A stretch of DNA of 64,000 nucleotides from Escherichia coli (GTDB lineage: Bacteria > Pseudomonadota > Gammaproteobacteria > Enterobacterales > Enterobacteriaceae). Location of the stretch: the NCBI RefSeq assembly GCF_041248615.1, contig NZ_CP158426.1; one strand, 5' to 3'. Positions 20,130 through 38,024 of this stretch are shown one piece after another; the stretch's first letter is position 1; the number at the start of each line of letters is the position of its first letter. Both the position numbers and the translations under genes were made by a program. The notes beneath the pieces are model-generated. The model saw only the letters and a program-made list of their open reading frames with translations. It was not told the DNA's origin and ran no database searches.

Positions 20130-20145
20130 TTTACGGAGTTATCAC

Positions 20146-20601: not shown

Positions 20602-20604
20602 TCA

Positions 20605-21168: not shown

Positions 21169-21536
21169 AGCGCGGATTTACCTTGCTGGAAGTGATGCTC
21201 GCGCTGGCGATTTTTGCGCTGGCTGCCACGGCGGTGTTACAGATTGCCAGCAGCGCGCTGAGTAATCAGCACGTTCTTGAGGAAAAAACGGTAGCGGGGT
21301 GGGTGGCTGAAAACCAGACCGCGCTGCTCTACCTGATGACCCGCGAGCAGCGGGCGGTCAGCCATCAGGGCGAGAGCGATATGGCAGGAAGCCGCTGGTA
21401 CTGGCGAACCACACCGCTGAGTACAGGCAACGCGCTGCTCCAGGCAGTGGATATTGAAGTCAGCCGTCACGAAGACTTTTCGTCGGTGATTCAGTCACGA
21501 CGCGCCTGGTTTAGCGCCGTGGGAGGCCAACAGTGA
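21165..21536 (+). CDS. gspI: Minor pseudopilin GspI
   Basis: The N-terminus reads MKRGFTLLEVMLALAIF, 123 aa. Confidence 0.9.
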   Translation: MKRGFTLLEVMLALAIFALAATAVLQIASSALSNQHVLEEKTVAGWVAENQTALLYLMTREQRAVSHQGESDMAGSRWYWRTTPLSTGNALLQAVDIEVSRHEDFSSVIQSRRAWFSAVGGQQ

Positions 21537-22138
21537 GAAGGACTTGCGCTGGTTTCACGTTACTGGAAATGCTGGTGGCAATTGCCATTTTTGCCTCGCT
21601 GGCACTGATGGCGCAGCAGGTGACTAACGGCGTCACACGCGTGAATAGCGCCGTCGCCGGACACGATCAAAAACTAAACCTCATGCAGCAAACAATGAGT
21701 TTTCTGACCCACGATCTGACACAAATGATGCCGCGTCCGGTAAGAGGCGATCAGGGCCAGCGTGAACCAGCGTTACTGGCGGGCGCTGGCGTTCTGGCGT
21801 CTGAGAGTGGAGGAATGCGTTTTGTGCGCGGCGGTGTGGTTAACCCGTTGATGCGTCTGCCACGCAGCAATCTGCTCACCGTCGGTTACCGCATTCATGA
21901 CGGTTATCTCGAACGGTTAGCCTGGCCGCTGACCGATGCCGCAGGCAGCGTGAAGCCGACAATGCAAAAGTTGATTCCGGCGGATTCGCTCCGCTTGCAG
22001 TTCTACGACGGCACGCGCTGGCAGGAGAGCTGGTCGTCAGTACAGGCGATCCCTGTGGCAGTGCGCATAACCCTGCATTCGCCGCAATGGGGCGAAATTG
22101 AACGCATCTGGTTGTTACGCGGGCCGCAATTATCATGA
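21533..22138 (+). CDS. gspJ: Minor pseudopilin GspJ
   Basis: It has the N-terminus AGFTLLEMLVAIAIF, 201 aa, and a GTG start overlapping gspI. Confidence 0.88.
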   Translation: MRRTCAGFTLLEMLVAIAIFASLALMAQQVTNGVTRVNSAVAGHDQKLNLMQQTMSFLTHDLTQMMPRPVRGDQGQREPALLAGAGVLASESGGMRFVRGGVVNPLMRLPRSNLLTVGYRIHDGYLERLAWPLTDAAGSVKPTMQKLIPADSLRLQFYDGTRWQESWSSVQAIPVAVRITLHSPQWGEIERIWLLRGPQLS

Positions 22139-23112
22139 TCACCTTACCACCAAAACGCGGAATGGCACTGGTCGTGGTGCTGGTATTGCTGGCGGTTATG
22201 ATGCTGGTGACCATCACGCTTTCCGGGCGGATGCAGCAACAACTTGGGCGAACGCGCAGCCAGCAGGAATACCAGCAGGCGCTGTGGTACAGCGCCAGTG
22301 CAGAAAGCCTGGCGTTGAGCGCACTCAGTCTGAGCCTGAAAAATGAAAAGCGCGTGCATCTGGCGCAGCCGTGGGCTTCCGGCCCTCGTTTTTTCCCACT
22401 GCCGCAGGGGCAAATCGCCGTCACTCTGCGTGACGCACAGGCCTGCTTTAACCTGAATGCCCTCGCTCAGCCGACGACGGCGTCGCGTCCGCTCGCGGTA
22501 CAACAACTGATTGCCCTGATCTCGCGCCTTGATGTACCTGCTTATCGGGCCGAACTGATAGCCGAAAGCCTGTGGGAGTTTATTGACGAAGACCGCAGCG
22601 TGCAGACGCGTCTGGGTCGTGAAGACAGCGAGTATCTCGCCCGCTCGGTGCCGTTCTACGCCGCTAATCAACCGCTGGCGGATATCAGCGAGATGCGCGT
22701 GGTGCAGGGAATGGACGCCGGGCTTTATCAAAAACTGAAACCGTTGGTCTGTGCGCTGCCGATGGCCCGCCAGCAAATCAACATCAATACCCTGGACGTC
22801 GCGCAAAGTGTGATTCTTGAGGCGCTGTTTGACCCGTGGTTAAGCCCTGTACAGGCGCGGGCGTTATTACAACAACGTCCGGCGAAGGGCTGGGAAGATG
22901 TCGATCAGTTTCTTGCTCAGCCGCTACTTGCAGACGTCGATGAGCGTACTAAAAAACAGCTAAAAACCGTCCTGAGCGTGGACAGCAATTACTTCTGGCT
23001 GCGTTCAGATATCACCGTGAATGAGATTGAACTGACGATGAATTCGTTAATTGTCCGCATGGGCCCACAACACTTTTCTGTTCTCTGGCATCAGACAGGA
23101 GAAAGTGAGTGA
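22135..23112 (+). CDS. gspK: Minor pseudopilin GspK
   Basis: 325 aa with an N-terminal hydrophobic helix (GMALVVVLVLLAVMML), in the canonical position. Confidence 0.88.
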   Translation: MITLPPKRGMALVVVLVLLAVMMLVTITLSGRMQQQLGRTRSQQEYQQALWYSASAESLALSALSLSLKNEKRVHLAQPWASGPRFFPLPQGQIAVTLRDAQACFNLNALAQPTTASRPLAVQQLIALISRLDVPAYRAELIAESLWEFIDEDRSVQTRLGREDSEYLARSVPFYAANQPLADISEMRVVQGMDAGLYQKLKPLVCALPMARQQININTLDVAQSVILEALFDPWLSPVQARALLQQRPAKGWEDVDQFLAQPLLADVDERTKKQLKTVLSVDSNYFWLRSDITVNEIELTMNSLIVRMGPQHFSVLWHQTGESE

Positions 23113-24287
23113 GTTCCATGCTTGAGATTTTTTTCCCGCTTTGCGCCGCTGATCCCATCCGCTGGCAGCGCCGTACACCCGACGTGGAGTGCGGCATCTG
23201 GCCTGACGTTGCTGATGAATGTCTCCAGCAATGGCTGCAAACTGATGCGATTCGACTCTATATTCCCGGCGAATGGATCAGCGTCTGGCAGGTTGAACTG
23301 CCTGATGTGCCCCGTAAGCAGATACCGACGATTCTGCCCGCCTTGCTGGAAGAAGAGCTGAACCAGGATATCGATGAACTGCATTTCGCCCCGTTGAAAA
23401 TCGACCAGCAACTGGCAACCGTAGCTGTGATTCACCAGCAGCATATGCGCAACATTGCGCAATGGTTGCAGGCAAACGGCATCACCCGCGCTACCGTCGC
23501 GCCAGACTGGATGTCCATTCCTTGTGGGTTTATGGCTGGCGATGCGCAACGGGTTATCTGCCGCATCGATGAATGCCGGGGATGGAGCGCCGGGCGGGCG
23601 CTGGCTCCGGTCATGTTCCGTGCACAGCTCAATGAGCAGAATTTACCGCTTTCGCTAACCGTGGTCGGCATTGCACCGGAAGAACTATCTGCATGGGCTG
23701 GTGCGGACGCCGAACGCCTGACCGTTACGGCTCTGCCAGCCATTACCACTTATGGCGAACCGGAAGGGAACCTGCTAACAGGGCCGTGGCAGCCTCGTGT
23801 CAGCTACCGAAAACAGTGGGCGCGCTGGCGGGTGATGATTCTGCCGATATTGCTGATTCTGGTTGCGCTGGTAGTGGAACGGGGCGTGACGTTATGGAGC
23901 GTCAGCGAACAGGTGGCGCAAAGCCGCACCCAGGCGGAAAAAAAGTTCTTAACACTGTTCCCGGAGCAGAAGCGGATTGTGAATTTGCGTTCCCAGGTGA
24001 CGATGGCGCTGAAAAAATATCGCCCGCAGGCCGACGATACCCGGCTGCTCGCAGAATTGTCAGCGATCGCCAGTACCCTGAAATCAGCGTCACTTACCGA
24101 CATCGAAATGCGTGGTTTCACCTTTGATCAAAAACGCCAGACGCTTCACCTTCAGCTACGGGCTGCAAACTTTGCCAGCTTCGACAAACTGCGTAGCGCA
24201 CTGGCGGCAGATTATGTTGTGCAACAGGACGCGTTACAGAAAGAGGGTGATGCGGTTTCCGGCGGCGTAACGTTGCGGAGGAAATAA
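23109..24287 (+). CDS. gspL: Type II secretion protein GspL (start GTG at 23109 or ATG at 23118)
   Basis: 392-aa bitopic protein with a central transmembrane segment (WRVMILPILLILVALVV), in the canonical position. Confidence 0.88.
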   Translation: MSSMLEIFFPLCAADPIRWQRRTPDVECGIWPDVADECLQQWLQTDAIRLYIPGEWISVWQVELPDVPRKQIPTILPALLEEELNQDIDELHFAPLKIDQQLATVAVIHQQHMRNIAQWLQANGITRATVAPDWMSIPCGFMAGDAQRVICRIDECRGWSAGRALAPVMFRAQLNEQNLPLSLTVVGIAPEELSAWAGADAERLTVTALPAITTYGEPEGNLLTGPWQPRVSYRKQWARWRVMILPILLILVALVVERGVTLWSVSEQVAQSRTQAEKKFLTLFPEQKRIVNLRSQVTMALKKYRPQADDTRLLAELSAIASTLKSASLTDIEMRGFTFDQKRQTLHLQLRAANFASFDKLRSALAADYVVQQDALQKEGDAVSGGVTLRRK

Positions 24288-24288
24288 C

Positions 24289-24825
24289 ATGTTACGCGAT
24301 AAATTTATTCACTATTTTCAGCAATGGCGTGAACGCCAGTTAAGCCGTGGCGAACACTGGCTGACACAACACCTGGCGGGGCGTTCTCCGCGTGAAAAAG
24401 GCATGTTACTGGCAGCGGCGGTGTTCCTGTTTAGCGCCGGATATTACGTCCTCATCTGGCAGCCGTTGAGCGAACGGATAGAACAACAGGAGACGATGTT
24501 GCAGCAGCTGGTGGCAATGAACACCCGACTGAAGAGCGCCGCGCCGGATATTATTGCAGCGCGAAAATCTGCCACAACAACGCCTGCGCAGGTATCGCGG
24601 GTCATCAGTGACAGTGCTTCCGCGCACTCGGTGGTCATCAAGCGGATAGCCGAGCGTGGGGAGAATATTCAGGTCTGGATAGAACCTGTGGTGTTTAATG
24701 ACCTTCTGATATGGTTAAACGCACTGGATGAAAAATATGCGCTGCGGGTGACACAAATTGATGTCAGTGCTGCTGAGAAGCCTGGGATGGTGAATGTGCA
24801 GCGGCTGGAGTTGATAAGAGGATAA
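24289..24825 (+). CDS. gspM: Type II secretion protein GspM (YghD-like)
   Basis: 178-aa ORF with a single N-terminal transmembrane segment. It is the last gene of the cluster. Confidence 0.88.
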   Translation: MLRDKFIHYFQQWRERQLSRGEHWLTQHLAGRSPREKGMLLAAAVFLFSAGYYVLIWQPLSERIEQQETMLQQLVAMNTRLKSAAPDIIAARKSATTTPAQVSRVISDSASAHSVVIKRIAERGENIQVWIEPVVFNDLLIWLNALDEKYALRVTQIDVSAAEKPGMVNVQRLELIRG

Positions 24826-24866
24826 GTGTTCCAGTAAATTCCTTACCTGTGAAATTCAGTCCGAAA

Positions 24867-24897
24867 GGTGAGTGTATAATCTTCTTATCCACTCACC
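24867..24897 (+). terminator. Hairpin downstream of gspM (possible operon terminator)
   Basis: An 8-bp stem GGTGAGTG / CACTCACC encloses a 15-nt loop. It is followed by an AT-rich tract but not by a clean U-run. Confidence 0.3.
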
Positions 24898-25175
24898 GAG
24901 TTAAATATTTTTGCAATAAGAAATATCCCACTTCCGCCATCACTGAATGTTCTGCAAAACGACAGATACGAGTTCTCTCCTGAAACAGCCCTGCGTCCTA
25001 TAAATATGCTTACGTGTGGCAATACATCATGATTATTAATAGATGCAATGAATCATTAGGTAGCAATTGATAGGTCAAAACATATAGGATAATTCTTGTG
25101 TGATCTGTATGTTGTGTAGCCTGGAAATTAGTAAAATTCCTGGAGATAATCAGAGAGGGAATTTCAAATAGTATA

Positions 25176-25840
25176 ATAATTTCCCAAGAAACTATTCGTC
25201 GATTTTAGGAAAAGTCTGCTCAGGTATATCTACCGAGGGATAATGCTGGCTGTAACGCTGGTTAAAATAGATACACAAAATAATCAAGATGTATATTTTA
25301 ATCGACGAAAATAATTACTTCCGGGATTATTGATGCGACTTAAATAACACCATTTAAATGTGATATAAATCACAAATATGGCTGTGAAGAGGGTGCTGTA
25401 GATATAAATAAGAAGTACATGAGTGAATTTTAAATAGGGGAATAGTTTCTCGCTAAACAATTTGTTGGTGATCAATCACATGCGTTCTGGTTTGAGGCAG
25501 ATTGCAGGTGTTGTTACGCATAAAATTCATAGGTGGTATTATAATCAAGTAGTTAACAGTAATAGTAAAAAATAATTTCTTGCGAAATTAGCAGCCCATT
25601 TTGAATAAGTGTGTTCCGGAGTAATCCAGAGCGCATGCTGCTTTACGTCTTTTTCAAGCCATGTTGGTTAAGCAAAAAGAGGTAGAAATAATTTCCTGAG
25701 AAATTAACTCAACATTCTGAAATGGCCAGTTTTCTGAAATTACCAGAAGACCGAATACATTCATGCCTGAAGAATGGATTAGAAGAAACGAGACGGAAAT
25801 AGATCTATTTATCCCTGCGGAAATAATTTCTGATGAAATT
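25176..25840 (+). repeat. Four dispersed copies of the motif ATAATTTC-N4-GAAAYT (palindromic core AATTTC-N4-GAAATT) upstream of kpsM
   Basis: The cores lie at 25178-25193 (one mismatch), 25574-25589, 25690-25705 and 25825-25840. Each is preceded by ATA or AATA. A TTCTGAAAT direct repeat lies at 25716 and 25732. Confidence 0.6.
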
Positions 25841-25908
25841 GTTTTCGGCTATTAAAAAGGTCAAACCGGCTGAGTGAATTTTATCCAGTTACAAACAAGT
25901 ATTACCTC

Positions 25909-25947
25909 CAGTGTATTGGTAGCTGTTAAGCCAGGGGCGGTAGCATA
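25909..25947 (+). promoter_or_regulatory. JUMPStart element with ops site (RfaH recruitment) upstream of kpsM
   Basis: The sequence cagtgtattggtagctgttaagccaggggcggtagcata contains GGCGGTAG at 25936-25943, about 30 nt upstream of the kpsM ATG. Confidence 0.85.
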
Positions 25948-25975
25948 CCTGAAGAGAATAGGATCACATCACCAA

Positions 25976-26752
25976 ATGGCAAGAAGTGGATTTGAAGTCC
26001 AGAAAGTCACCGTAGAGGCATTATTTCTACGAGAAATACGAACACGCTTTGGTAAGTTCCGTCTGGGATATCTGTGGGCGATTCTCGAACCCTCTGCGCA
26101 TTTGCTGATACTGTTGGGCATTTTTGGTTACATTATGCACCGCACGATGCCAGACATCTCATTCCCGGTGTTTTTACTTAATGGCCTGATTCCCTTTTTT
26201 ATCTTTAGCAGTATCAGCAATCGTTCTGTAGGTGCTATTGAAGCGAATCAGGGGCTGTTTAATTATCGACCAGTAAAACCCATCGATACGATCATTGCGC
26301 GTGCATTGCTTGAGACACTGATTTACGTTGCTGTTTATATATTGCTTATGCTTATCGTCTGGATGGCAGGCGAATATTTCGAAATAACAAACTTTTTACA
26401 ACTTGTGCTCACCTGGAGTCTGCTGATCATTCTTTCATGTGGCGTCGGCTTAATATTCATGGTCGTTGGCAAAACCTTCCCTGAAATGCAAAAGGTCCTG
26501 CCGATACTGCTTAAGCCGCTGTATTTCATCTCCTGCATCATGTTCCCTTTACACTCGATTCCAAAGCAATACTGGTCATATCTACTCTGGAACCCATTAG
26601 TGCATGTCGTAGAGTTAAGCCGCGAGGCAGTTATGCCTGGCTATATCAGCGAAGGCGTGAGTCTGAACTACCTTGCAATGTTCACTCTGGTCACCCTGTT
26701 CATCGGTCTGGCGTTATACCGAACGCGTGAAGAGGCAATGCTGACATCATGA
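25976..26752 (+). CDS. kpsM: Capsule export ABC transporter permease KpsM (region 3)
   Basis: Translation reads MARSGFEVQKVTVEALFLREIRTRFGK..., 258 aa. The longer ORF-track start at 25874 covers the ops element and was rejected. Confidence 0.95.
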   Translation: MARSGFEVQKVTVEALFLREIRTRFGKFRLGYLWAILEPSAHLLILLGIFGYIMHRTMPDISFPVFLLNGLIPFFIFSSISNRSVGAIEANQGLFNYRPVKPIDTIIARALLETLIYVAVYILLMLIVWMAGEYFEITNFLQLVLTWSLLIILSCGVGLIFMVVGKTFPEMQKVLPILLKPLYFISCIMFPLHSIPKQYWSYLLWNPLVHVVELSREAVMPGYISEGVSLNYLAMFTLVTLFIGLALYRTREEAMLTS

Positions 26753-27426
26753 TTAAAATTGAAAATTTGACGAAGTCATATCGCACGCCAGCGGGTCGAC
26801 ATTATGTCTTTAAGAATTTAAATATTGAAATCCCTTCAGGAAAAAGTGTTGCCTTTATTGGTCGCAACGGAGCGGGTAAATCAACGTTACTGAGAATGAT
26901 TGGCGGCATTGACCGCCCCGACAGTGGAAAGATCATCACTAATAAAACAATATCATGGCCAGTCGGCCTCGCAGGTGGATTTCAGGGAAGTTTAACCGGA
27001 CGCGAAAACGTAAAATTTGTTGCCCGGTTATACGCGAAGCAAGAAGAACTAAAAGAGAAAATTGAGTTTGTCGAAGAATTTGCCGAACTCGGTAAGTACT
27101 TCGATATGCCGATTAAAACTTACTCATCTGGTATGCGATCGCGTTTAGGCTTTGGTTTAAGCATGGCATTTAAGTTTGATTATTATATCGTCGATGAAGT
27201 AACCGCAGTCGGTGATGCCAGGTTTAAAGAAAAATGCGCTCAATTGTTTAAAGAAAGGCATAAAGAGTCTAGTTTTTTAATGGTTTCACATAGTTTGAAT
27301 TCATTGAAAGAGTTTTGTGATGTGGCCATTGTGTTTAAGGATGATAATGCGGTTGGTTTTTATGAGGATGTTCATGAGGGGATAAAATCATACCAAATAA
27401 ATGAAAATACAACTATTAAGATTTAG
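26749..27426 (+). CDS. kpsT: Capsule export ABC transporter ATPase KpsT (region 3)
   Basis: 225 aa with Walker A GRNGAGKST, the signature YSSGMRSRL and Walker B YYIVDE. Confidence 0.95.
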   Translation: MIKIENLTKSYRTPAGRHYVFKNLNIEIPSGKSVAFIGRNGAGKSTLLRMIGGIDRPDSGKIITNKTISWPVGLAGGFQGSLTGRENVKFVARLYAKQEELKEKIEFVEEFAELGKYFDMPIKTYSSGMRSRLGFGLSMAFKFDYYIVDEVTAVGDARFKEKCAQLFKERHKESSFLMVSHSLNSLKEFCDVAIVFKDDNAVGFYEDVHEGIKSYQINENTTIKI

Positions 27427-27612
27427 GCCATTACGTGAAGATATAATTTACACTCCCCAAGTTAATACATATAAGTAATTATATTAATAAATATTTATAA
27501 AAGGCATCTAAAGAATAGATGCTTAGAGCCACTTAAACTGCTGTATTGTCTAAATGTAAGAAATAACGAAATGGGTTTTTGGTGATTACTGTACTCAAAA
27601 GGAGTCAAGAAT

Positions 27613-30600
27613 ATGAAATCAATATTGTATTATTTAGAGCCACGTACAGAATTAAATGACAAATTATTTCGCTATGCAACACTACGCTCTTATCTACTAC
27701 CTGAAATTGATGGCCTTAGGATAGCTGATAAGAGCCTCGATTTTAAAATGATCGTTTCTCGTACGATTTATAATAAAGCAAAACAAAATAATTTAAAAAT
27801 GGAGGGTATCGATTTTATAATTATTGATGAAGATGTATTTGAAAAGAACTCATATCTGAAGAATATTAATGTTAGTAATGAATTATATCATGGGAATTTA
27901 AATATAAAGGCTAATGAAGAACTAAAATCAATCATATCTGCTTGCCTTCCTGTTGATTATAAACCAGATATTATTATTTCATATGAAAGCCCAGCTCCAT
28001 TTTTTAAAGAGATATTTCCATCATCTTTACTTTTAAACGCTATGTTTGGAATTTTTTCAAGGGCACCATTTCCTGCATATGGGTTATTAGACCCATGTGG
28101 TTTGTATGAATATTCATATCAATATAAATATGCTGATAAAATTCGTGCTGAGGAGATTTCAGAAGAAGAAAAGGAAGTTATAAAATTACTCAGAAGACAA
28201 AGTTCAAGAGCACTTGCTGCTTATCATCCTCTCAAGAAATATATTTCATCATTATATGAAAAATATGATCGACTTGTTGTATTAGCATGTCAAGTGGATA
28301 ACTATTTTTCTTATAATAGTTGTACCAATTATCCATCACAATATGCGATGGTGGAAGATGTTCTTTCTCAAGTTCCATCAAATATTGGTGTTATAGTTAC
28401 AGAACATGGCTATAAAAGACAAATAAGTGACGAGCAAATTGAGTCTTTAAATGAAAAATACAGTAATTTTATATATTTTTCTAAAAAAGATGTATTCACA
28501 CCAAGTCAATTTATTCTTCCTTATGTAGATGGTGCTTTATCAGTCTCGTCATCGATTGGTTATCAGGCTGCTTTATGGCAGATTCCATATTTTGGTCTTG
28601 GAAAATCACAAGTCGATGTACTCTGTTCAAATACATCATTAATGAGCTTCGTTAATGATGTTGAAAAAGGCATAAAGATTGATCGTGATAATATTCTTTA
28701 TGTTTTACTTTCAAAAGTTCACTTATCACATAAAAATGATTTGTTTAATGGAAAATCTTATCTAAATAAGTTGAAGGATTTATTTAATAAGTTTACCTCT
28801 AATTGCGACGAATATGAGTATTTTAACACTAAAAAAAGTATTGATGAAGTTCGAAAAGATATCATCTGTGGCAACAGAGAATGGTTACTGAAAAAAAACT
28901 TTATTGACTCAAAATTAGTTCCTGAAGTAGACCATTTACGTGTTGCAATGTCGCATTCAAAAGCGATCTCTTATGATCTTTTTGATACTCTTGTTGAACG
29001 TGATTTTGTTGAACCTCATGAATTATTTAATCTAATTGAATCCCGTGTACGTAATGAGTTAAACAATAAAAACTTCCCTTTCTATTATGTAAGACGACAA
29101 GCCGAAATTGACTTGCGCAGAGAGACAAGAGGTGAGTTTGAAATTACTCTCGATGAAATTTACGAAAGATTTCCAAGATACTTTGATCTTACTTTAGAAC
29201 AACTAGAGAAGATAAAAAATATAGAAATAGATGCTGAAGTCGAACTCGTTCATCCGAAAAAAGAAATGGTTCGTGAATTTTATTTTTCTCAAATGATTTG
29301 TGAAAGTGTATCTATCATTACAGATATTTATCTTTCTCAGAATGTTATTGAGCGTATTTTACAAAAAGTAAAAATTAGTGGTTACAATAAATTATTGGTT
29401 TCAGCAGAAACTAAAACAAGAAAACATAACGGAACTATTTATCCTGAATATTTGAAATATATAAGAGATAATTTTGATATTAATGCAGGACAGGCTCTTC
29501 ATGTCGGTGATAATAAACAAGCTGATGGTGATATGGCTAAAAAACATGGCATAAAAACATATGTATTTCAAAAAGCGATTGATAATTACAAAAAATCTTT
29601 AATTGCTGATATTTTACGTTCCAGTATTAATCATCCAGGTATTTCGAGTTCTGTTATTAATGGTTTGTTTGCTAACAAATATCACGCAGGACACTGGTTT
29701 AAAATTAACAAGGAATCAATTTTTAATGCTGACGAATATAATTATGGCTATATGGCAATAGGGCCTCTTGTTGTTGGCTTTACTCAGTGGTTGTATCGGC
29801 GGGTTAATAAATTAGGTATCAAAAAATTATATTTCTTATCCCGCGATGGATGGATTCTTAAAAAAACATTCGATTATTTTTATCCTGAATCATCATCTGG
29901 CATCAAGACCGAATACCTGTACAGCTCTCGTCGAACTGCAATGGTAGCATCGTTAAGAAATATTGATGATATTATTGAAGTTGCCTCTCAAAACTTCAAT
30001 GCTAGAAAGCTAAGTGACTTTTTATCTACTCGTTTTGGGCTGGATGTGGATACTGTTAAAAAATCTGTTCTTGAAAAATATAATTACAAGCATGACACTA
30101 TTGTTTCTCCTTATTTTGAATTTGGAAAGCTGATTGGTTTTTTAAAAGATATTCATCATACAATATTGTCTAATGCAAAAAATGAACGTGAAAGCTATAT
30201 CGATTATTTACGAGAAACTGGATTTGAAAATGATTGCTTAAATGGCGGTGCTACTGTTGTTGATATTGGTTACAGTGGTTCCATGCAATATTATTTAAAA
30301 AAAATACTGCAATGCCCTTGTGTGAACGGATTTTATTTTTTAACACATCACCATAGTCGTGATTATTTTTCAAATGATCATTTTGAAGGTTTCTTGCAAA
30401 ATCTTGATGATCATAAGATCGCTTATAGACATGGATTAAATGATCATGTGTTTATTTTTGAAGCAGCATTAAGTTCCCCTGAAGGAAGTCTGATTAAAAT
30501 GGAAGGGAAAGGTCAAGAAAGAGAAATGATTTTTCTCGAGGCAGAAGAAGAGATTGTAAGAAAAAATGCTCTATTAGGAACACATCGTGGCGTAATGGAC

Positions 30601-31122
30601 TTTGTTCATGATATCAAAACTCGTTTTGGTTCTTACTTTAAATACATTGAATTTTCTCCTATTCTTTCTTCTCAACTTATTTTGAATTTTGCGAATAATC
30701 CCAACGGTATAGATGCAGGGATGTTTGCTTCTCATGAAGTCGAAAATGTTTTTGGTGGGGGGTCTGTATGCTTAATTTCGCCTTTACTAGATTGCTATAA
30801 GGACTCTAATGGCACCATTAACCCTAAAATTATCGATGAGTTATTAAAAGCATCTAAATGGAAGAGAGGTGCCAGTGCTTATTATAACTTAGTCAATGGA
30901 ACTCAACCGCGAGTTAATCCTGCTAAAATGCCAGCGCCATCTGTTAACCCAGTTGTTGTGAAGCAAACGCCACAAACTACTTATGCACATCCTTTAAAGA
31001 CAACTACGCAGCGTAAACTTGCTAAGTTAAAAAAAGACCCATATTTATTCTTTAATGATTCCCAAAAACCTCTTTTAAAAAGTTTACGATTGTTCTTCAA
31101 AAATACATCAAAGCTTAATTAA
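27613..31122 (+). CDS. Region 2 giant multidomain protein, putative capsule polymerase (KpsS/KpsC-like Capsule_synth-type domain, HAD-like domain, unassigned C-terminal domain, basic tail)
   Basis: 1169-aa ORF in very AT-rich DNA. Residues around 215-330 align by motif with the KpsS and KpsC of this same window (VLACQVDNYFSY vs VLQVYNDSQI / QVEDDASI; VIVTEHGYK vs VIKHHPMD; ALSVSSSIGYQAALWQIPYFGLG vs VVTINSTAGISALIHNKPLKVMG). HAD motif I (SYDLFDTLVERD) and motif IV (HVGDNKQADGDMAKKHGIKT) are present. Confidence 0.6.
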   Translation: MKSILYYLEPRTELNDKLFRYATLRSYLLPEIDGLRIADKSLDFKMIVSRTIYNKAKQNNLKMEGIDFIIIDEDVFEKNSYLKNINVSNELYHGNLNIKANEELKSIISACLPVDYKPDIIISYESPAPFFKEIFPSSLLLNAMFGIFSRAPFPAYGLLDPCGLYEYSYQYKYADKIRAEEISEEEKEVIKLLRRQSSRALAAYHPLKKYISSLYEKYDRLVVLACQVDNYFSYNSCTNYPSQYAMVEDVLSQVPSNIGVIVTEHGYKRQISDEQIESLNEKYSNFIYFSKKDVFTPSQFILPYVDGALSVSSSIGYQAALWQIPYFGLGKSQVDVLCSNTSLMSFVNDVEKGIKIDRDNILYVLLSKVHLSHKNDLFNGKSYLNKLKDLFNKFTSNCDEYEYFNTKKSIDEVRKDIICGNREWLLKKNFIDSKLVPEVDHLRVAMSHSKAISYDLFDTLVERDFVEPHELFNLIESRVRNELNNKNFPFYYVRRQAEIDLRRETRGEFEITLDEIYERFPRYFDLTLEQLEKIKNIEIDAEVELVHPKKEMVREFYFSQMICESVSIITDIYLSQNVIERILQKVKISGYNKLLVSAETKTRKHNGTIYPEYLKYIRDNFDINAGQALHVGDNKQADGDMAKKHGIKTYVFQKAIDNYKKSLIADILRSSINHPGISSSVINGLFANKYHAGHWFKINKESIFNADEYNYGYMAIGPLVVGFTQWLYRRVNKLGIKKLYFLSRDGWILKKTFDYFYPESSSGIKTEYLYSSRRTAMVASLRNIDDIIEVASQNFNARKLSDFLSTRFGLDVDTVKKSVLEKYNYKHDTIVSPYFEFGKLIGFLKDIHHTILSNAKNERESYIDYLRETGFENDCLNGGATVVDIGYSGSMQYYLKKILQCPCVNGFYFLTHHHSRDYFSNDHFEGFLQNLDDHKIAYRHGLNDHVFIFEAALSSPEGSLIKMEGKGQEREMIFLEAEEEIVRKNALLGTHRGVMDFVHDIKTRFGSYFKYIEFSPILSSQLILNFANNPNGIDAGMFASHEVENVFGGGSVCLISPLLDCYKDSNGTINPKIIDELLKASKWKRGASAYYNLVNGTQPRVNPAKMPAPSVNPVVVKQTPQTTYAHPLKTTTQRKLAKLKKDPYLFFNDSQKPLLKSLRLFFKNTSKLN

Positions 31123-31130
31123 TATAATGT

Positions 31131-31158
31131 GAGTCGCACTATGGTGTGACTCTTTTTT
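31131..31158 (+). terminator. Rho-independent terminator between the two region 2 genes
   Basis: A 9-bp stem GAGTCGCAC / GTGTGACTC (one G-U pair) with loop TATG is followed by TTTTTT. Confidence 0.7.
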
Positions 31159-31240
31159 ATATGTCAGTGATAGTTATTAATGAAATATTTAATGCGCGAA
31201 GGTGTACGATTTTTACAATATTTAGAGACTGGTGGGTCAA

Positions 31241-32230
31241 ATGAGTATTTCTTTGAAAAATATTGATTTTGCTAAAGGTCCTGTTGATTCCCTCCATCAT
31301 GATTATTACTTATGGCGAGGGAAGAACATTGAGGATAAAAGACTTTTTCTCGTTTTCTCATCTCGGGGAGCAGGTCCTGGAGAATTTAGTTTTTTCAAAA
31401 CTTTTGATGCGCTTAATGTAAATGTTTTGCATGTTACACCCTCTGATTTTTCATGGTACCAAAAAGGGTTAGTCGGTTTAGGGAGTGATTTGCCTTCTGC
31501 ATTTAAAGCCCTATCTGACCGAATAGATAATTTCTGTATTTATCATAAAATAAAACAAATTATCTGTGTAGGGGCTTCCATGGGAGGATATGGTGCTTTA
31601 ATTTATGGGGCTTTATCTAGTAGAAAAATAAAAACAACACTTATTCTTTTTGGCACCGAAACAATATTAAAACTTCCTTATTCTAAAAGTTCTGAGAGTG
31701 AATTTGATATTCTCAAAAAATTTAAAGATGTAAGGTTTCTAGATTATTCTGATCTTGATGTGAATATGATATTTGGTGAGTTTGATATTGTAGATACTTA
31801 TTGTGCTTTATCGATGCGACATGATCGAAATTTTTCATTTTTTTCATGCACTAGCGCCTCACATGTTGTTCCGGAATACTTAAATAGACAAATTGGAATT
31901 GTTAATTTTTTTACAGACTTCTTATCGGGTGGAAGATCTTTTATTGGAAGAGGCCACATTGCTTCTGAGCTTTATCCTGAGGATATTTCTCCTCTTCTGT
32001 TCTCGAAACAATTTACTGAGGAATACAATAATGCCCTCCTCTGTTGCTTGAAAAAATATCCTTCATTTGGGTTTGCATGGAATAGATTAGGCGTATATTT
32101 ACACAATATAGGAGATCTGGCTGGGTCTTTAGCAGCATTAAAAAGAGCATTTTTCATCAACCCTGATTATCCAAATACAATTGAGCATCTTAACTCGGTA
32201 AGAAATAAACTAAAAACTAAAAACTTTTAG
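31241..32230 (+). CDS. Region 2 alpha/beta-hydrolase-fold protein with C-terminal TPR-like repeats (possible capsule O-acyl/acetyl modifying enzyme)
   Basis: It has the nucleophile elbow VGASMGGYGAL, with later Asp (GEFDIVD) and His (SASHVVPE) in canonical Ser-Asp-His order. The C-terminus AWNRLGVYLHNIGDLAGSLAALKRAFFINPDYPN is TPR-like. The ATG at 31241 is preferred over the GTG at 31232 because a GGTGGG Shine-Dalgarno sequence lies just upstream. Confidence 0.55.
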   Translation: MSISLKNIDFAKGPVDSLHHDYYLWRGKNIEDKRLFLVFSSRGAGPGEFSFFKTFDALNVNVLHVTPSDFSWYQKGLVGLGSDLPSAFKALSDRIDNFCIYHKIKQIICVGASMGGYGALIYGALSSRKIKTTLILFGTETILKLPYSKSSESEFDILKKFKDVRFLDYSDLDVNMIFGEFDIVDTYCALSMRHDRNFSFFSCTSASHVVPEYLNRQIGIVNFFTDFLSGGRSFIGRGHIASELYPEDISPLLFSKQFTEEYNNALLCCLKKYPSFGFAWNRLGVYLHNIGDLAGSLAALKRAFFINPDYPNTIEHLNSVRNKLKTKNF

Positions 32231-32307
32231 TTTTTATGTATACTTGTGTGAGGAATGAATAGCAATATATCTCAATATCTAAGAGCTGGTTTTTATATCG
32301 TTCATAG

Positions 32308-33516
32308 TTATAATTTTTTTACTTTTATTTGTTTTCTTACTCTATCCCCATAATAAACCCCATTAACCTGCGTCTTCACCAATAAATACCCCCGAAACTT
32401 CTTAAACAGTTTCATATCCGGTTTAAAATCGGCCTGCCAGAACTGGTGCAAATGCCCTTGATACGTCAAGCCTTTGATGTCGTACAGGGCATTGCCCATC
32501 ACTTTGAGTGGTTTGTTGTGAATCAGCGCAGATATCCCCGCCGTACTGTTAATTGTCACCACCGCTTTTGCGTGGCGTAACAATTCCGGCATCGGGAGAT
32601 CGTGCACATAAATGACTCGTTCCCCTAAGCCATATTCCTTACTCAACCGCTTAATTAATGGTCGATAGAGTCTGTGACCACGATCCATTGGATGGTGCTT
32701 GATCACCAAATAACTTTCTTTCGGTGCTTTACGTGAAAATGAGTACATGACTTCATTAATATAGTCACGCACATCGTTATAATTGCTGTGGTTACGAATC
32801 TGGCTATCGTTATACACCTGCAAAACGGCAAGATAATAACGCTGATCCAGCTCATTCATTAACCTCGGCAATACCTTACGCTGTGTTACCTTGTAAAGTT
32901 GCTTGCGCCAGTATGCACGAACCCAGCAACGTGCTTCATACCAGGGGGAAAACGATTTATGGTGGCGGTAGCGAGGGAACTCATGGCGGTAATGCCAGCC
33001 CATCAGGTAATACCACATCGCATGACCTATACGTTTCATCGTTGAAGGTTTTAAGTTCTCAACGTGCGGCGCAGGCATATCTGGTAACTTACGATAAAAA
33101 TCCGGATCGCGCGGTAGCGATGAATATGCGTTTACTCCGCCTTCTTCAACGGTTATAAATTGCGGGCGTAAATATCCTTCTTCAAATGCCAGAAAGCGGA
33201 GCCCTTTCGACTTTGCCCAGCGTTTTGCTTCTTTATGCAATGGGCGACAGTCACCAAAACAGAGGATGGTATCAAAGTCATATTGCCGGTGGAGATCCCG
33301 TAACCATCCGGGGAACTCTTTCGGCGTTTGGTAGTAGGCCAGGTATTGTCGATGGCGGCAGTAAAAACGATCCCCACCGTTGAATACAACATTCACAGCG
33401 TTACGTCCTAATGACTCTAACCATTCGGCGACGTCATTGAAAAAAGGTCCCATCGGCCCCTGCAATAGCAGATATTTTTTACCGGATAATAAAACGGTTA
33501 GTGCATTACCTTGCAT
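32308..33516 (-). CDS. kpsS: Capsule beta-Kdo transferase KpsS (region 1)
   Basis: Translation reads MQGNALTVLLSGKKYLLLQGPMGPFFNDVAEWLE..., 402 aa, recognised as KpsS. Confidence 0.93.
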   Translation of the reverse strand: MQGNALTVLLSGKKYLLLQGPMGPFFNDVAEWLESLGRNAVNVVFNGGDRFYCRHRQYLAYYQTPKEFPGWLRDLHRQYDFDTILCFGDCRPLHKEAKRWAKSKGLRFLAFEEGYLRPQFITVEEGGVNAYSSLPRDPDFYRKLPDMPAPHVENLKPSTMKRIGHAMWYYLMGWHYRHEFPRYRHHKSFSPWYEARCWVRAYWRKQLYKVTQRKVLPRLMNELDQRYYLAVLQVYNDSQIRNHSNYNDVRDYINEVMYSFSRKAPKESYLVIKHHPMDRGHRLYRPLIKRLSKEYGLGERVIYVHDLPMPELLRHAKAVVTINSTAGISALIHNKPLKVMGNALYDIKGLTYQGHLHQFWQADFKPDMKLFKKFRGYLLVKTQVNGVYYGDRVRKQIKVKKL

Positions 33517-33550
33517 AAATAATTTGCGTAATAGTCAACTATGAAATTGT

Positions 33551-35578
33551 TTAGCCAAATCTGACCTTGCAGAACATAATTAATTTGCGGTAATAGCGTA
33601 TTACCCGTCCCGCTTTTTTTCGGGTAATAAACATCGGCTTACGCGGCGTCTGGATTAAATATTCCGCAGCTTCCTCAACCGTAATAGGCTGTAGCCGTGT
33701 TGGGTGAATATATGTTGGGTAAACAATCAACGCCTGATAGATCAAGTCTGCTATCGTTAATTTTTGCTCGCGGCGCGGGCAATGATGTTCATCAACGGTT
33801 AAACCCCAACCGGCATAGAAGGGCAGGCCGTAACAATGAACTTGCTTGCCATGTAATAACGCTTCAAACCCGGACAATGATGTCATGGTGTGCACTTCAT
33901 CTGCGCGCTGAATGCATTGAATAATATCGGCGCCCAGTGCCTGATAATCAGCGAGTTCAGCAGTCAGTTCTGCCGGAATATCGCCCTTGCGATTCCCCAC
34001 CAGTACATCCGGGTGCGGTTTATAAACAATGTAGGCGTGCGGATTGCGCTCGCGTACTGTGCGTAATAACTCAAGGTTGCTCTTAATCGAGACAGTGCCT
34101 GTTTTAATGGAGGCATCGTCCTCTACCTGACCCGGCACCAGGATAACTTTTTTATCTTTGGCTTCGGCTGGTAGAGAGAAATCGGCTCCCAGGTTGTACT
34201 TACTCAGTTTGCTTTCAACCAGTCGCTGGCGTAATTTTTCAGCTCGCATCTGCTGCGCCAGCGTTAACTGGCTGTGATTAAGCAGGACTTCCAGGTCGCT
34301 GGGGCGCGTGGCGTCATAGTAGATCCCGCGTTTATCCAGTACCAACGATAGCGGCGGCAGCAGGTCAGAGCCAAGTCCGGATGAACGCAGAAAACCATCT
34401 TCCATTCGCCATAACGGCAGTGATTTTTGTTGCGCTTCGGCTCGCCATTGCTGTTCTCCCTTTACACCCCATACCACGCAGGCGCTCGCCGCAGTACAGC
34501 GACGTGAAAAACTCAGCCGGTTTGTTGCCGTTTGCAAGAAAGGTTTCAGGATCGCTGACTTCCACAGCGTTAAGCCTGGCGCCCATAAATAACCATCACG
34601 CTGTTGCAGATGTCGACGTTGTAATTGCAGCCATTGCAGCACGGTAAATAGATCGCTTACTTCTCCCGTTTGCGGATCGATATAGCGACAGTAACGCAGG
34701 TATGCAGCGGCAAAAAGTTCCTCCAGCGTGGCAGAACCGCGTCGGGCAGATAACAAAGCGGACTGTGGATGACGATCGTCGGTTAAACCCCAACCTGCAT
34801 ACCAAGGCTGGCCGAAACATGTTACTGGTTTTCCTGCCAGCAAGGCTTCAAAGCCGTACTGGGAGGTCACGACGTAAACCTGGGAAACGTGTCGCAATAG
34901 CGACTGCGGGCTGACATTCTCGGCAATCAAACGTACTCGTTGCGTGGCACGCAGATCAGCGAAATAACCTGTTTTCTTTCCTTCCAGTACATCTGGGTGC
35001 ACCTTCACCCAAATTTCGGCTTGAGGATTTTCCGCCATCGCGGCTTCCAGCATGGCAGCAAACTCATGCGGGCCAGCATTGCCATACGTCACTGACATAT
35101 CATTAAATGTCTGATCGACAACCAGAACGATGTCTGCACGTTCTGACTCATCAGCCACAAACGCAGGTGCCAGGTTATATTTCGACAAATCTCCGGTCAC
35201 GATGGTGTGCATCGCTTCTCTGGCCTGGCTTATCAGAGCTGTATTTCCGGCTTTATCCTGTACCAGTTTCTCCAGTGCTGAAGGCTTGCTGGCATCGTAG
35301 TAAATGCCACAATCATCCACCACCAGAGAAAGCGGCGGCTCGCCATTGACGCCAAGATCCAGCGAACGCACAAATCCATCTTCCAGACGAATGACGGGTT
35401 TTCCCGCTGCTTTGGCGATGGCGACTGGTTTCGCCGCGCTGGGACGATGTCCCCACACGGCGATAGCATCAACTTCTTGCGGAACAGGGCGCAGCAGAGA
35501 AAGTTTCTGGCACGGTTGCGCCAGAAATTTCTCCAGATGCGGAATACGCCAGATGCCAGGCGAGTAAATGCCAATCAT
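33551..35578 (-). CDS. kpsC: Capsule beta-Kdo transferase KpsC (tandem Capsule_synth domains)
   Basis: 675 aa starting [19 protein letters not shown]..., with duplicated HPDV motifs. Confidence 0.95.
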
Positions 35579-36315
35579 GCGTTTTCAGCCAGTTCCTGTG
35601 CCATCAGGGCGCGCACTTTTTCCAGGCATGCTGGGGTGTCGACGCCCGGACCGGTTGCGGCAACCTCAAATGTGCGGATGTTGATCCCTGCGCTCATCAA
35701 CCGCAGCTGCTCCAGTGATTCTGCCTGCTCTGGCATGGACTCCGGTAACTGACTGTAGTTTTGCAGCACATCGCGACGATAAGCGTAAATACCAACGTGT
35801 TTCAGGTAGCGCGCTTTTTCAGCATTACGCGGATAGGGAATCGGCGAACGGCTGAAATAAAGCGCATCCTGGCGGGTATTTACCACCACTTTTACCGTGC
35901 TTGGCTCGGTCGCTTCTTCGGCAGAAATCGCGTGGCATAGCGTTGCCACTGGCAACGCGGGATCATCACGCATTCCTTGTAACAGCGTTTCTACATCCCG
36001 CGGGCGAATCATTGGTTCATCGCCCTGCAGGTTAATGTAGATATCTGCCTCGACTTTATGCATCACCTCGACCAGCCGATCGGTGCCGGATTCATGATCG
36101 TTGCGCGTCATGATGGCTTTCCCGCCAAACGCCTGCACGGCCTTTTCAACACGCGGGTCGTCTGTTGCCACCCAAACTTCCGCAACGCCCGCCACCTGTA
36201 ACGCACGCTCGTAAACATGCTGGATCATCGGTTTACCAACAATATCGAGCAGTGGCTTACCCGGCAGGCGCGAGGAGCCATAGCGAGCCGGAATGACAAT
36301 AACTGCTTTGCTCAT
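35575..36315 (-). CDS. kpsU: CMP-Kdo synthetase KpsU
   Basis: 246 aa starting [25 protein letters not shown], overlapping the kpsC start. Confidence 0.95.
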
Positions 36316-36324
36316 TTCAACTCC

Positions 36325-38001
36325 TTACAAAGACAGAATCACTTTTGCACCCACCGCCAACTGGTAAAGGATGGTGGAAATACCGCGAGTAACTTCAATG
36401 TTTTTCGATTCATATTTCGGCAGAACCATAATCTCATCGCCCGGTTTGAGTGAATCCACATCTTCTGCGTTGACGGCTGCACCGTTCTGACGAATGACGA
36501 TAATTCTGGCGTTACCCGATTTCTGCGTCAGGCCACCACATTTCTCGATGTAATCCTCGGTGGTCATACCCTTCTGCCAGCTCACCGCGTTCGGGAACAG
36601 CACTTCGCCATGAACCATAACCAGCGATGTTTTCTCCGGAATATTGATGACGTCGCCATCTTCAAGCAGAACAGAATCAATATTGGATTCGTTGAGGATC
36701 ACTTCACCTTTCGGAACAACGGTGCGTGCTTTCGCCACAAAGCGGCTGATCAGTTGTGCTTCCTGCATTCGCAGGCTGGCTTCTTCTTTGGTGGATGACT
36801 GGGCAGAAAGTGATGCTTCCTCCAGCTTTTGCAGCGAGAGATTCAGCATCTCTTTCTGACGCTGAGCCACTGATGGGCGATAAAGCTGAACTGCGTTCAT
36901 CTGCGACATGCTGTTCGGGCGGACTTTTTCCAGAACCGCACGCATAGTGGAACCATAAGGCAGTACCATGGCATGTTCACCGGAGTGTGCGCCTTCAACC
37001 CGCACCTGAATGGTGCCGGCATAGCGGTCAGTGCTCACGATTAAGGTATCGCCATTTTGCAACATACGGCCTGGCGCAGAACTGATCGGATAGTATTCGC
37101 TGCGTTTTTGCAGCCCCTGTTTACGCATAATCGTAATGTGAGTCGCGCCAGGCTTAGGGCGCGCCCAGCTCAACGCTTCCGTTACGGGAATGCTGCTTTC
37201 GCGGAACTCAAAGTCGTAGCTGTTAAAGACATCGCCCTGAACGCTGAAAGTATGCTGACGCGGCCCGACGATGATGGTGTCACCATCGGCGAACTGCGAA
37301 AGCCCCAGTTTGCCGTTCAGCAGGAAGTCGTACAGGTTGACGTTGGAGCGCACGCGGTTACCGCGCTTGACCACAATATCAACGTAACTTCCGCGCTCTG
37401 GATCAACGCCGCCAGCCTTGATCAGATAATTGAGTAACGAATCAGACGTCACACCGCCATACAGACCAGGATTACGCACAAATCCGGTCACGTACACTTT
37501 TACTGGCTGCGCCTGTAATAAGGAGGCGTAGACGTTGACGTTGGACTGGTATACTTCCTTCACTTTGGATGTGACCAGGGCATTTAGCTGACTATTACTG
37601 ACGCCAGCAACTTTCACCGGACCAACGTTCGGCAGGAAAATATTACCTTTGGGATCAACCTGTAACGCACCATCAAAGGTGAACGCACCCCACAAGCGAA
37701 CCTGAATGCTATCACCCGGATTCAGAATATAGTCAGGGTTGAATCCTACCGTCGCACCGCTATCTGCGCTGGTGCCGTTGAAAAGTTGAGCACCAAACAT
37801 ACGGCTCATTACCACCGGCGGTGCGGGCGGCGGGGTATTGTCGAAGCCGCTCATGTTTTGCGTATCCGACTGTTGCCCGTTCAGAATACCGGTAAGCGGC
37901 GCGGCTCCTGTAAGGTTTGGGTCGGCGTTAATATCAATGGCCGCGCTGGCCTGCGCCGCGTGACAGGCGGCAATCAGTAAAATTGATTTAAATAATTTCA
38001 T
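36325..38001 (-). CDS. kpsD: Capsule outer-membrane/periplasmic export protein KpsD (OPX family)
   Basis: 558 aa starting MKLFKSILLIAACHAAQASA (signal peptide), recognised as KpsD. Confidence 0.95.
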   Translation of the reverse strand: MKLFKSILLIAACHAAQASAAIDINADPNLTGAAPLTGILNGQQSDTQNMSGFDNTPPPAPPVVMSRMFGAQLFNGTSADSGATVGFNPDYILNPGDSIQVRLWGAFTFDGALQVDPKGNIFLPNVGPVKVAGVSNSQLNALVTSKVKEVYQSNVNVYASLLQAQPVKVYVTGFVRNPGLYGGVTSDSLLNYLIKAGGVDPERGSYVDIVVKRGNRVRSNVNLYDFLLNGKLGLSQFADGDTIIVGPRQHTFSVQGDVFNSYDFEFRESSIPVTEALSWARPKPGATHITIMRKQGLQKRSEYYPISSAPGRMLQNGDTLIVSTDRYAGTIQVRVEGAHSGEHAMVLPYGSTMRAVLEKVRPNSMSQMNAVQLYRPSVAQRQKEMLNLSLQKLEEASLSAQSSTKEEASLRMQEAQLISRFVAKARTVVPKGEVILNESNIDSVLLEDGDVINIPEKTSLVMVHGEVLFPNAVSWQKGMTTEDYIEKCGGLTQKSGNARIIVIRQNGAAVNAEDVDSLKPGDEIMVLPKYESKNIEVTRGISTILYQLAVGAKVILSL

Positions 38002-38024
38002 CACAAACTCATTCAGCGACAGCG

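Follow-up and report, generated by a model that had tools for sequence, protein, structure and literature searches.

The two-gene K107 cassette of an Escherichia coli group 2 capsule locus and its predicted Kdo/ribofuranose polymer

Gene content of region 2

We analyzed a 64-kb stretch of Escherichia coli DNA from contig NZ_CP158426.1 (hereafter, the window), which carries a group 2 capsule (kps) locus with a region 2 of only two genes. The interval under study, positions 27427 to 32307, lies between the stop codon of kpsT (27426) and that of kpsS (32308, minus strand) and contains exactly two substantial open reading frames (ORFs), here referred to as ORF-A and ORF-B, both on the plus strand. 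The ORF scan found no other frame longer than 62 amino acids (aa) in this interval, and no third gene, tRNA, or Rfam element was detected inside it. The two genes and the predicted modules of the larger product are as follows.

27613-31122, plus strand: ORF-A, predicted K107 polymerase (K107_10 of the kTYPr catalogue), 1169 aa, starting at an ATG that follows a GGAG ribosome-binding site
27613-28902, plus strand: ORF-A module 1 (aa 1-430), GT99/WbbB-like CMP-Kdo transferase fold
28945-29592, plus strand: ORF-A module 2 (aa about 445-660), predicted HAD-type ribose-5-phosphate phosphatase (CrpP-like), nucleophile D455, motif IV G632-D633...D638
29680-30792, plus strand: ORF-A module 3 (aa about 690-1060), predicted glycan phosphoribosyltransferase (CriT/gPRT-like) using phosphoribosyl pyrophosphate (PRPP), with D745 in SRDG and VVDIGYSGSMQ at 882-892
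30868-31119, plus strand: ORF-A C-terminal tail (aa 1086-1169), a Pro/Thr-rich linker followed by a basic segment
31241-32230, plus strand: ORF-B, predicted polymer O-acetyltransferase (kTYPr K107_9), 329 aa, ATG start preceded by GGTGG

For ORF-B, the ORF finder proposed an alternative GTG start at 31232, which falls within the ribosome-binding site that serves the ATG at 31241; RefSeq also takes the ATG.

The G+C fraction of the interval, 0.318, is the lowest of all 4881-bp segments of the window (median, 0.511) and compares with 0.449 for kpsM, 0.383 for kpsT, 0.452 for kpsS, and 0.49 to 0.55 for kpsC, kpsU, kpsD, kpsE, and kpsF. The flanking genes are readily recognized by their Pfam domains, ABC2_membrane and ABC_tran in KpsM and KpsT and Capsule_synth in KpsS and KpsC. 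According to Pfam and NCBIfam, neither ORF-A nor ORF-B resembles a nucleotide-sugar synthesis enzyme. An earlier sequence-only reading of this DNA had described just such a locus, with two genes between kpsT and kpsS, both more AT-rich than regions 1 and 3, and without genes for nucleotide-sugar synthesis; all three descriptions hold, with a G+C of 0.318 versus 0.38 to 0.55 in regions 1 and 3. It had also raised a defective locus as a possible objection. Over positions 24800 to 41500, the window matches the E. coli NRZ14408 chromosome (NZ_LT599825.1) with 100% identity; for this stretch of the chromosome, RefSeq lists kpsM, kpsT, two “hypothetical proteins,” kpsS, kpsC, kdsB (kpsU), kpsD, kpsE, and kpsF, with zero pseudogene flags. 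The kps locus is thus intact, with all ten of its genes present, and nothing points to a defect.

Identity with capsule type K107

The kTYPr study (PMC13171606; 2026, preprint August 2025) distinguished 85 transporter-dependent K-types, 55 of which were new (K104 to K163). One of these is K107, listed in lineage 2A as a “previously unknown” type and as one of the two newly defined types positively associated with invasive isolates (PMC13171606). Its InterProScan table gives K107_10 as a protein of 1169 aa with a HAD domain at 450-655/661 and assigns 329 aa, an α/β-hydrolase domain (21-144), and TPRs (241-329) to K107_9. The MD5 checksum of ORF-B is the K107_9 identifier, e84dbe74d86b57a13c4a47f10528c0ab, so the two proteins are identical. 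ORF-A has the same length as K107_10 and the same HAD coordinates (450-655/661), but its MD5 differs; ORF-A of the window and that of an ST131 genome differ at 4 residues. With kpsEDCSMT, K107_9, and K107_10 all present, as judged by gene comparison, region 2 described here is the K107 cassette of a group 2 (lineage 2A) kps locus.

A region at least 99.7% identical to it occurs in 21 of the 5426 complete E. coli genomes, and all 21 carry annotations for both genes. The sources of these genomes include human blood (among them O25b:H4-ST131), chicken meat, rivers, a plant, and a bird.

The suggestion that the system is uncharacterized therefore needs qualification: the type is already catalogued as K107 (PMC13171606), while our literature searches found neither a solved polymer structure nor enzymology for it, and a full-text search found no mention of K107 in other E. 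coli papers. [quoted passage not shown] The K16 region 2 has the same two-gene organization, with an α/β-hydrolase-TPR protein of 345 aa (K16_7) and a polymerase of about 1137 aa (K16_8) whose HAD domain is at 440-650, but the low identities separate the two types.

HAD and ribosyltransferase modules of ORF-A

ORF-A combines three catalytic modules, a Kdo-transferase-like one, a HAD phosphatase, and a PRPP-dependent ribofuranosyltransferase, with a C-terminal tail. In a phmmer search of the PDB, it matched Bcs3, the capsule polymerase of Haemophilus influenzae type b (8a0c/9h50; E value of 3.9e-28, ORF-A 424-786 versus Bcs3 355-723), and its C-terminal part alone matched the Thermobacillus ribofuranosyltransferase 7shg (E value of 3.3e-7) and, again, Bcs3. 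Module 2 also has HAD matches in NCBIfam. Bcs3 (CroT-CrpP-CriT-SH3b; PDB 8A0C) contains the CrpP HAD phosphatase at residues 374-591, with the nucleophile D386, and CriT at 592-1036, where D680 and E818 are required; its D680A variant is (partially) inactive. In the alignment with ORF-A, D386 corresponds to D455 (SYDLFDT) and D680 to D745 (FLSRDG). These two residues, as well as the GDNxxAD (632-638) and VVDIGYSGSMQ (882-892) motifs, are invariant across five ORF-A orthologues. With homology to both modules and the catalytic Asp residues in place, modules 2 and 3 are predicted to take PRPP as the donor and then to remove the 5-phosphate. The relationship to Bcs3 covers only this HAD phosphatase-PRPP ribofuranosyltransferase pair and, possibly, a membrane-associating C-terminal region. 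Where ORF-A has a Kdo-transferase fold, Bcs3 has a TagF-like ribitol-phosphate transferase as its third module. Bcs3 also requires CDP-ribitol synthesis genes and makes a teichoic-acid-like polymer.

A closer architectural parallel is KrkA, the polymerase of K13, K20, and K23 (GT140 + HAD + gPRT; PDB 9YFX-9YFZ), which adds both Kdo and ribose in vitro and suffices for making the K13 repeat (PMC12887879, January 2026). Like ORF-A, it is a single protein of about 1100 to 1170 aa encoded in a near-minimal region 2, where a Kdo-transferase-fold module is followed by the HAD module, the PRPP ribosyltransferase, and a basic C-terminal region. In both cases, the polymerase is accompanied by one acetyltransferase gene (a predicted one in K107). 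For sequence comparison, we retrieved a KrkA-type gene from E. coli genomes by using a primer sequence from PMC12887879. The resulting protein, from E. coli 2013C-4282, aligns with ORF-A residues 446-1048 at 30% identity (BLASTP E value of 7e-79). Only this HAD + gPRT part aligns, however, and the N-terminal domains show no similarity. The possibility that ORF-A represents the “E_coli_O25b” GT140 cluster of PMC12887879 was considered and rejected, as its N-terminal domain is dissimilar to that of the recovered KrkA-type gene.

The last 84 residues of ORF-A include 14 Lys/Arg versus 2 Asp/Glu. The C-terminal regions of KrkA and Bcs3 have been proposed to associate with the membrane, and because of this likeness the ORF-A tail is probably a membrane or partner anchor.

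A Kdo-transferase-like module without the nucleophilic Asp

Relatives of the N-terminal module are difficult to find by direct searches. It has no Pfam match at E values up to 0.01, Capsule_synth (PF05159) included; a precomputed PF05159 match is present in some members of its family. Nothing was found by phmmer in the PDB at E values up to 10, in a library that included KrkA (9YFX). Comparison with the GT140 module of KrkA (residues 1-356) produced no BLASTP alignment and an hhalign probability of 36%, and no homology between the two modules is detectable at the sequence level. Word-indexed searches with this domain returned only 6 and 13 matches, none from E. coli, and look-ups of the clusters of 10 length-matched family representatives yielded no E. 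coli protein. An exhaustive search of representative sequences recovered 654 clusters at 50% identity, mostly fusions of 1100 to 1200 aa with HAD and gPRT.

The AlphaFold2 model of the module, built with 35 homologues in the alignment, has a predicted local distance difference test score (pLDDT) of 95.3 and a predicted template modeling score of 0.92 and displays a modified GT-B fold with an inserted helical subdomain. Judging from this model, the module clearly has a Kdo-transferase fold, closest to GT99; in the structure comparison, the next fold scores 10.8. Profile comparisons point in the same direction: the family profile matches the GT99 β-Kdo transferase WbbB of Raoultella terrigena (PDB 5FA0/8CSB) at the SSS motif (E value of 0.008) and the N-terminal KpsC profile with 93.8% probability (hhalign E value of 1.8e-7), which makes KpsC a remote relative at the profile level. 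The module is only 13% identical to WbbB, which is an O-antigen chain terminator, in contrast to its predicted role as part of a polymerase. To our knowledge, CMP-Kdo is the only cytidine monophosphate (CMP)-linked sugar that the cell makes without extra genes. Since, in addition, the locus boosts its supply through KpsF and KpsU, CMP-Kdo would be the parsimonious donor for this module.

The donor-side residues of the active site are largely retained in ORF-A, with Q227, R150, H265, and S312/S313, plus E125 of a YE motif as a candidate base. In the profile alignment, Q227 corresponds to KpsC Q156 and H265 to KpsC H194. The Ser/Thr-rich phosphate motif is present as SVSSS (310-314, matching INSS of WbbB), and the His of the HP motif, which protonates the phosphate of CMP in the retaining β-Kdo transferases, is retained as H265, which precedes Gly266 and not Pro. 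Across 156 family sequences, Gln227 is found in 153, Arg150 (the equivalent of WbbB R163) in 153, Ser312 in 140, and Ser313 in 147, while position 265 is occupied by His in 121 and by Tyr in 34.

The nucleophile is a different matter. The QxxxD motif of WbbB (D232), KpsC (D160), and KrkA (D193) is incomplete in ORF-A: the Gln is kept, and the Q+4 position, equivalent to WbbB Asp232, is Tyr231. This position is Tyr in 113 of the 156 sequences, Phe in 15, His in 12, and Asp in none. A Glu that may serve as the general base varies in its placement. It is found either at position 125 (80 sequences; YE-type, as KrkA E102) or at position 144 (73 sequences; within an ExGxxxR hairpin, as WbbB E158) and almost never at both. 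ORF-A has Glu at aa 125 (27985-27987) and Met at aa 144 (28042-28044), where WbbB has Glu158; by our reading, the KpsC protein of the window has the hairpin type, E66 of its ExGxxR motif. The alternation between 125 and 144 suggests that this Glu is functional, and the family seems, from its sequences, to hold both general-base placements, the KrkA type and the WbbB/KpsC type.

The module thus lacks a defining feature of the retaining β-Kdo transferases that work by double displacement (GT99 WbbB, GT107 KpsC, and GT140 KrkA). These substitutions raise the possibility that the chemistry of the module and the anomeric form of its Kdo differ from those of the characterized retaining β-Kdo transferases. 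In its general form, this alternative keeps the cassette and the sugars proposed below and refines them by making the Kdo module mechanistically distinct from WbbB, KpsC, and KrkA; we give it nearly even odds. The module could be inverting, forming α-Kdo through direct attack by the acceptor with Glu125 as the base, or it could be retaining with a nucleophile other than Asp at the usual site, either Tyr231, as in sialidases, or Asp229. Asp232 has been reported to be absolutely conserved in all known retaining Kdo transferases, and the Gln, His, and Ser-Ser elements that ORF-A retains have been ascribed to an inverting sialyltransferase-like ancestor (PMC9587256); both observations, along with the absence of Asp at position 231 in the whole family, favor a distinct mechanism. 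So does the α-Kdo of K16, the closest E. coli relative of K107, which would need an inverting Kdo transferase (kTYPr, PMC13171606); Kdo is listed as α-pyranose in K16 and as β-pyranose in K19 and K97. On the other side, the equivalence of Tyr231 with the KpsC nucleophile D160 comes from the profile alignment (the same hhalign match at 93.8%), and position 229, Ser in most of the family, is acidic (Asp or Glu) in all five close orthologues and could serve as the nucleophile. That 15 members have Phe at position 231 speaks against Tyr being the nucleophile throughout the family. The stronger proposal, that the N-domain family is an undescribed class of capsule Kdo transferases, either inverting and α-specific or retaining with a Tyr nucleophile, is put forward tentatively, as possible but short of probable.

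Within E. coli, the family is also represented in the K155 polymerase (NZ_CP061749.1; L013, 3114-6632), a 1172-aa protein that matches its profile with an hmmsearch E value of 1e-92. It has Gln at Q+4 (QVTEQY) and Tyr in place of His265, adding to the active-site variation within the species. The K15 region 2 proteins and the K104 polymerase gave no match to the profile, the K13/K20 type lies outside the family as well, and K24, of the α-Kdo type, carries a GT29-like protein that is not a member of this family.

ORF-B as a predicted O-acetyltransferase

ORF-B consists of an α/β-hydrolase domain (aa about 20-235) and a C-terminal TPR domain (aa about 240-329), and in its AlphaFold2 model (pLDDT of 86.5), three to four TPR-like helical pairs come after the α/β-hydrolase. 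The G111-A-S113-M-G-G elbow, D185, and H208 are invariant in 12 homologues. Capsule O-acetyltransferases of the α/β-hydrolase class, namely, OatC (CssE), CsaC, and, as a proposed member, K15 ORF5, have as their signature a GxSxGG elbow plus a Ser-Asp-His triad, and ORF-B has the elbow, the triad, and the fold. Its elbow, VGASMGGYGAL, closely resembles VGGSMGGYAAL of K15 ORF5. CsaC (SacC/MynC) and OatC of Neisseria meningitidis share with ORF-B the α/β-hydrolase fold, the elbow, and the triad and are, likewise, cytoplasmic and encoded in the serotype-specific capsule region; unlike them, ORF-B has the additional TPR domain, and phmmer detected no significant sequence similarity of ORF-B to either. 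At the corresponding place, related Kdo/Ribf loci have acetyltransferases with a different fold, vatD in K13 and CatB-like ones in K104 and K155. Based on the fold, the elbow and triad signature, and the acetyltransferases of the related loci, we predict with moderate confidence that ORF-B O-acetylates the polymer. App polymerases require their TPR domains to elongate from the primer, and the TPR domain of ORF-B may dock to the polymerase or to the polymer. We consider other roles for ORF-B unlikely: that of an esterase or de-O-acetylase, that of a transferase for a different acyl group, or chiefly that of a TPR scaffold required when chains are primed or elongated on the poly-Kdo primer.

Conservation of the cassette beyond E. 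coli

Orthologues of ORF-A and ORF-B alone make up region 2 of kps-type loci at four other places, with the following identities to the E. coli proteins.

Kluyvera intermedia: ORF-A, 71%; ORF-B, 71%
Metagenomic contig L006: ORF-A, 64%; ORF-B, 54%
Rahnella: ORF-A, 60%; ORF-B, 50%
Cupriavidus taiwanensis: ORF-A, 47%; ORF-B, 51%

The two genes occur in two relative orientations, tandem or convergent, and in Kluyvera and Cupriavidus, too, the G+C content of the cassette is 15 to 20 points below that of its flanks. The proportion of nonsynonymous differences (pN) is 0.18 to 0.37, versus 0.68 to 0.88 for synonymous ones (pS; 0.72 to 0.88 in ORF-A), with the synonymous sites saturated. Since pN is low while pS is saturated, these comparisons indicate that both genes are under purifying selection and are co-inherited. 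The ORF-A/ORF-B pair is a conserved mobile cassette.

These data also bear on the possibility that the cassette is a silent or decaying remnant of horizontal transfer in an acapsular strain. Its very low G+C content, the insertion sequence (IS) fragments nearby, and a terminator-like hairpin between the two genes would fit such a history. However, neither the two ORFs nor any kps gene is disrupted, the region is nearly unchanged in 21 complete genomes of diverse sources, and the selection against amino acid replacements is strong across genera. Low G+C content is the rule for region 2, as also seen in Kluyvera and Cupriavidus, and the association of K107 with invasive isolates (kTYPr, PMC13171606) speaks against acapsular strains. 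We regard decay as highly improbable.

Rahnella-type loci (L003, 11036-12031, and L004, 10981-12030) have one more gene between kpsS and the ORF-B orthologue. Its product is a β-helix/NosD-like protein of 331 to 349 aa, possibly a polysaccharide lyase or depolymerase; the versions in E. coli, Kluyvera, Cupriavidus, and L006 lack this gene.

Predicted product and biosynthesis

Taken together, the gene content, integrity, K107 identity, module homology, conservation of catalytic residues, and co-inheritance established here lead us to propose, with a probability of roughly three in four, that the K107 cassette makes an acidic, O-acetylated Kdo/ribofuranose capsular polysaccharide through the action of ORF-A and ORF-B. 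For this polymer, the donors, the order of steps, the acetylation, the linkages, and the anomeric form are inferred; its synthesis would proceed as follows.

Region 1 genes of group 2 loci provide the poly-Kdo lipid primer, CMP-Kdo, and export functions. Working at the membrane's inner face, ORF-A would act on the phosphatidylglycerol-poly-β-Kdo primer made by KpsS and KpsC. First, the gPRT module, with D745 as the key acidic residue, would move ribose-5-phosphate from PRPP to a Kdo hydroxyl; second, the HAD module would strip the 5-phosphate via an aspartyl-phosphate on D455; and third, the GT99-like module would add Kdo from CMP-Kdo, whose level is raised by KpsF and KpsU, to the ribose, after which the cycle would repeat. 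The basic C-terminal tail would keep ORF-A at the membrane or the export complex. ORF-B, located in the cytoplasm and docked through its TPRs to the polymerase or the polymer, would O-acetylate the nascent chain by a ping-pong reaction via acetyl-Ser113, and KpsMTED would export the finished chain. Transcription of both genes would begin at the region 3 promoter and continue through kpsMT with JUMPstart/ops (RfaH) antitermination. Since the K107 region 2 contains no transition-transferase gene, the polymer would start directly on the poly-Kdo primer, which is plausible because the primer ends in Kdo, the usual acceptor of the ribosyl module.

Several points weigh against this proposal. The sugars, linkages, and acetylation of K107 are predictions, and K16, which among the E. 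coli types of known polymer is nearest to K107, is only distantly related, with the identities of 28% (K16_8) and 25% (K16_7) given above. The K16 repeat has two riboses, so the K107 repeat could be a trisaccharide. Furthermore, the N-terminal module has neither the Asp nucleophile nor the hairpin Glu of the characterized β-Kdo transferases (Tyr231 and Met144 instead), and therefore their activity and stereochemistry cannot simply be transferred to it.

The analysis supports the sequence-only reading in its essentials, namely, a Kdo-containing repeat made by a single multidomain polymerase, recognized here as a Kdo-transferase-like fold joined to HAD and a PRPP-dependent ribofuranosyltransferase, and modification of the polymer by the second gene product, for which the capsule O-acetyltransferase fold, elbow, and triad of ORF-B speak. 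Its expectation that the polymer is built from housekeeping precursors plus CMP-Kdo stands insofar as the implied donors, PRPP and CMP-Kdo, need no region 2 gene; ribose as the second sugar was not foreseen.

The surrounding kps locus and its neighbors

The remaining features of the locus are as follows.

25909-25947, plus strand: JUMPstart RNA element (Rfam RF01707; 53.6 bits versus a gathering score of 35), located 29 nt upstream of the kpsM start as annotated
25936-25943, plus strand: ops motif, GGCGGTAG, within JUMPstart, upstream of kpsM
25976-26752, plus strand: kpsM, region 3 ABC exporter (Pfam ABC2_membrane; RefSeq annotation of the identical record)
26749-27426, plus strand: kpsT, region 3 ABC exporter (Pfam ABC_tran; RefSeq annotation of the identical record)
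31131-31152, plus strand: terminator-like hairpin with a 9-bp stem (5 GC pairs) followed by TTTTTT, 9 nt past the ORF-A stop codon (consensus scan)
32308-33516, minus strand: kpsS, region 1 (Pfam Capsule_synth; RefSeq)
33551-35578, minus strand: kpsC, region 1 (Pfam Capsule_synth; RefSeq)
35575-36315, minus strand: kpsU/kdsB, region 1 (RefSeq)
36325-38001, minus strand: kpsD, region 1 (RefSeq)
38025-39173, minus strand: kpsE, region 1 (RefSeq)
39245-40228, minus strand: kpsF, region 1 (RefSeq)

In group 2 kps loci, JUMPstart/ops permits RfaH-dependent antitermination and read-through from region 3 into region 2. The elements found upstream of kpsM fit this arrangement, and such read-through is expected here. 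A further copy of GGCGGTAG, at 32964-32971 inside kpsS on the opposite strand, is within chance expectation. Promoter and terminator scans of the region returned no more sites than scans of shuffled sequences. The hairpin at 31131-31152 sits in the 118-nt gap between ORF-A and ORF-B; it might attenuate the expression of ORF-B and, hence, limit how far the polymer is acetylated, if it is not overridden by RfaH.

Between yghD (gspM) and kpsM, the 1.15-kb intergenic stretch (24826-25975) has a G+C content of 0.36, versus 0.56 for the gsp cluster, and presumably houses the region 3 promoter. The G+C content of kpsT (0.383) is below that of kpsM, which may reflect the exchange of kpsT jointly with region 2. 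The genes directly upstream of the kps locus, gspC-M plus yghD (14364-24825, plus strand), form a complete type II secretion cluster, next to which group 2 capsule loci usually sit on the chromosome. An IS110 transposase fragment (41027-41209, minus strand) is present beyond kpsF, and farther on an Ag43/Cah autotransporter gene is interrupted by an ISEc12 (IS21-like) insertion (46331-51764, minus strand). The island genes around Ag43/Cah are of the CP4 type (CbtA/CbeA toxin-antitoxin, antirestriction, DUF4942). No tRNA gene was found within the window.

Implications

K107 is a further, already named member of the recently described (2025-2026) group of Kdo-Ribf polymerase systems. Its presence in O25b:H4-ST131 bloodstream isolates and the reported association with invasive disease (PMC13171606) give it medical relevance. 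As the predicted polymer would be made by one enzyme from CMP-Kdo and PRPP, its structure and enzymology are directly testable, and such a one-enzyme route to the antigen suggests itself for glycoconjugate, diagnostic, or phage-receptor work. The Asp-less GT99-like fold offers a handle on the formation of α- versus β-Kdo linkages in capsules. Should it prove to be inverting or to use a Tyr nucleophile, the N-terminal module family would also be a candidate for the α-Kdo transferases that have long gone unassigned in Kdo/ribose capsules, such as K16.

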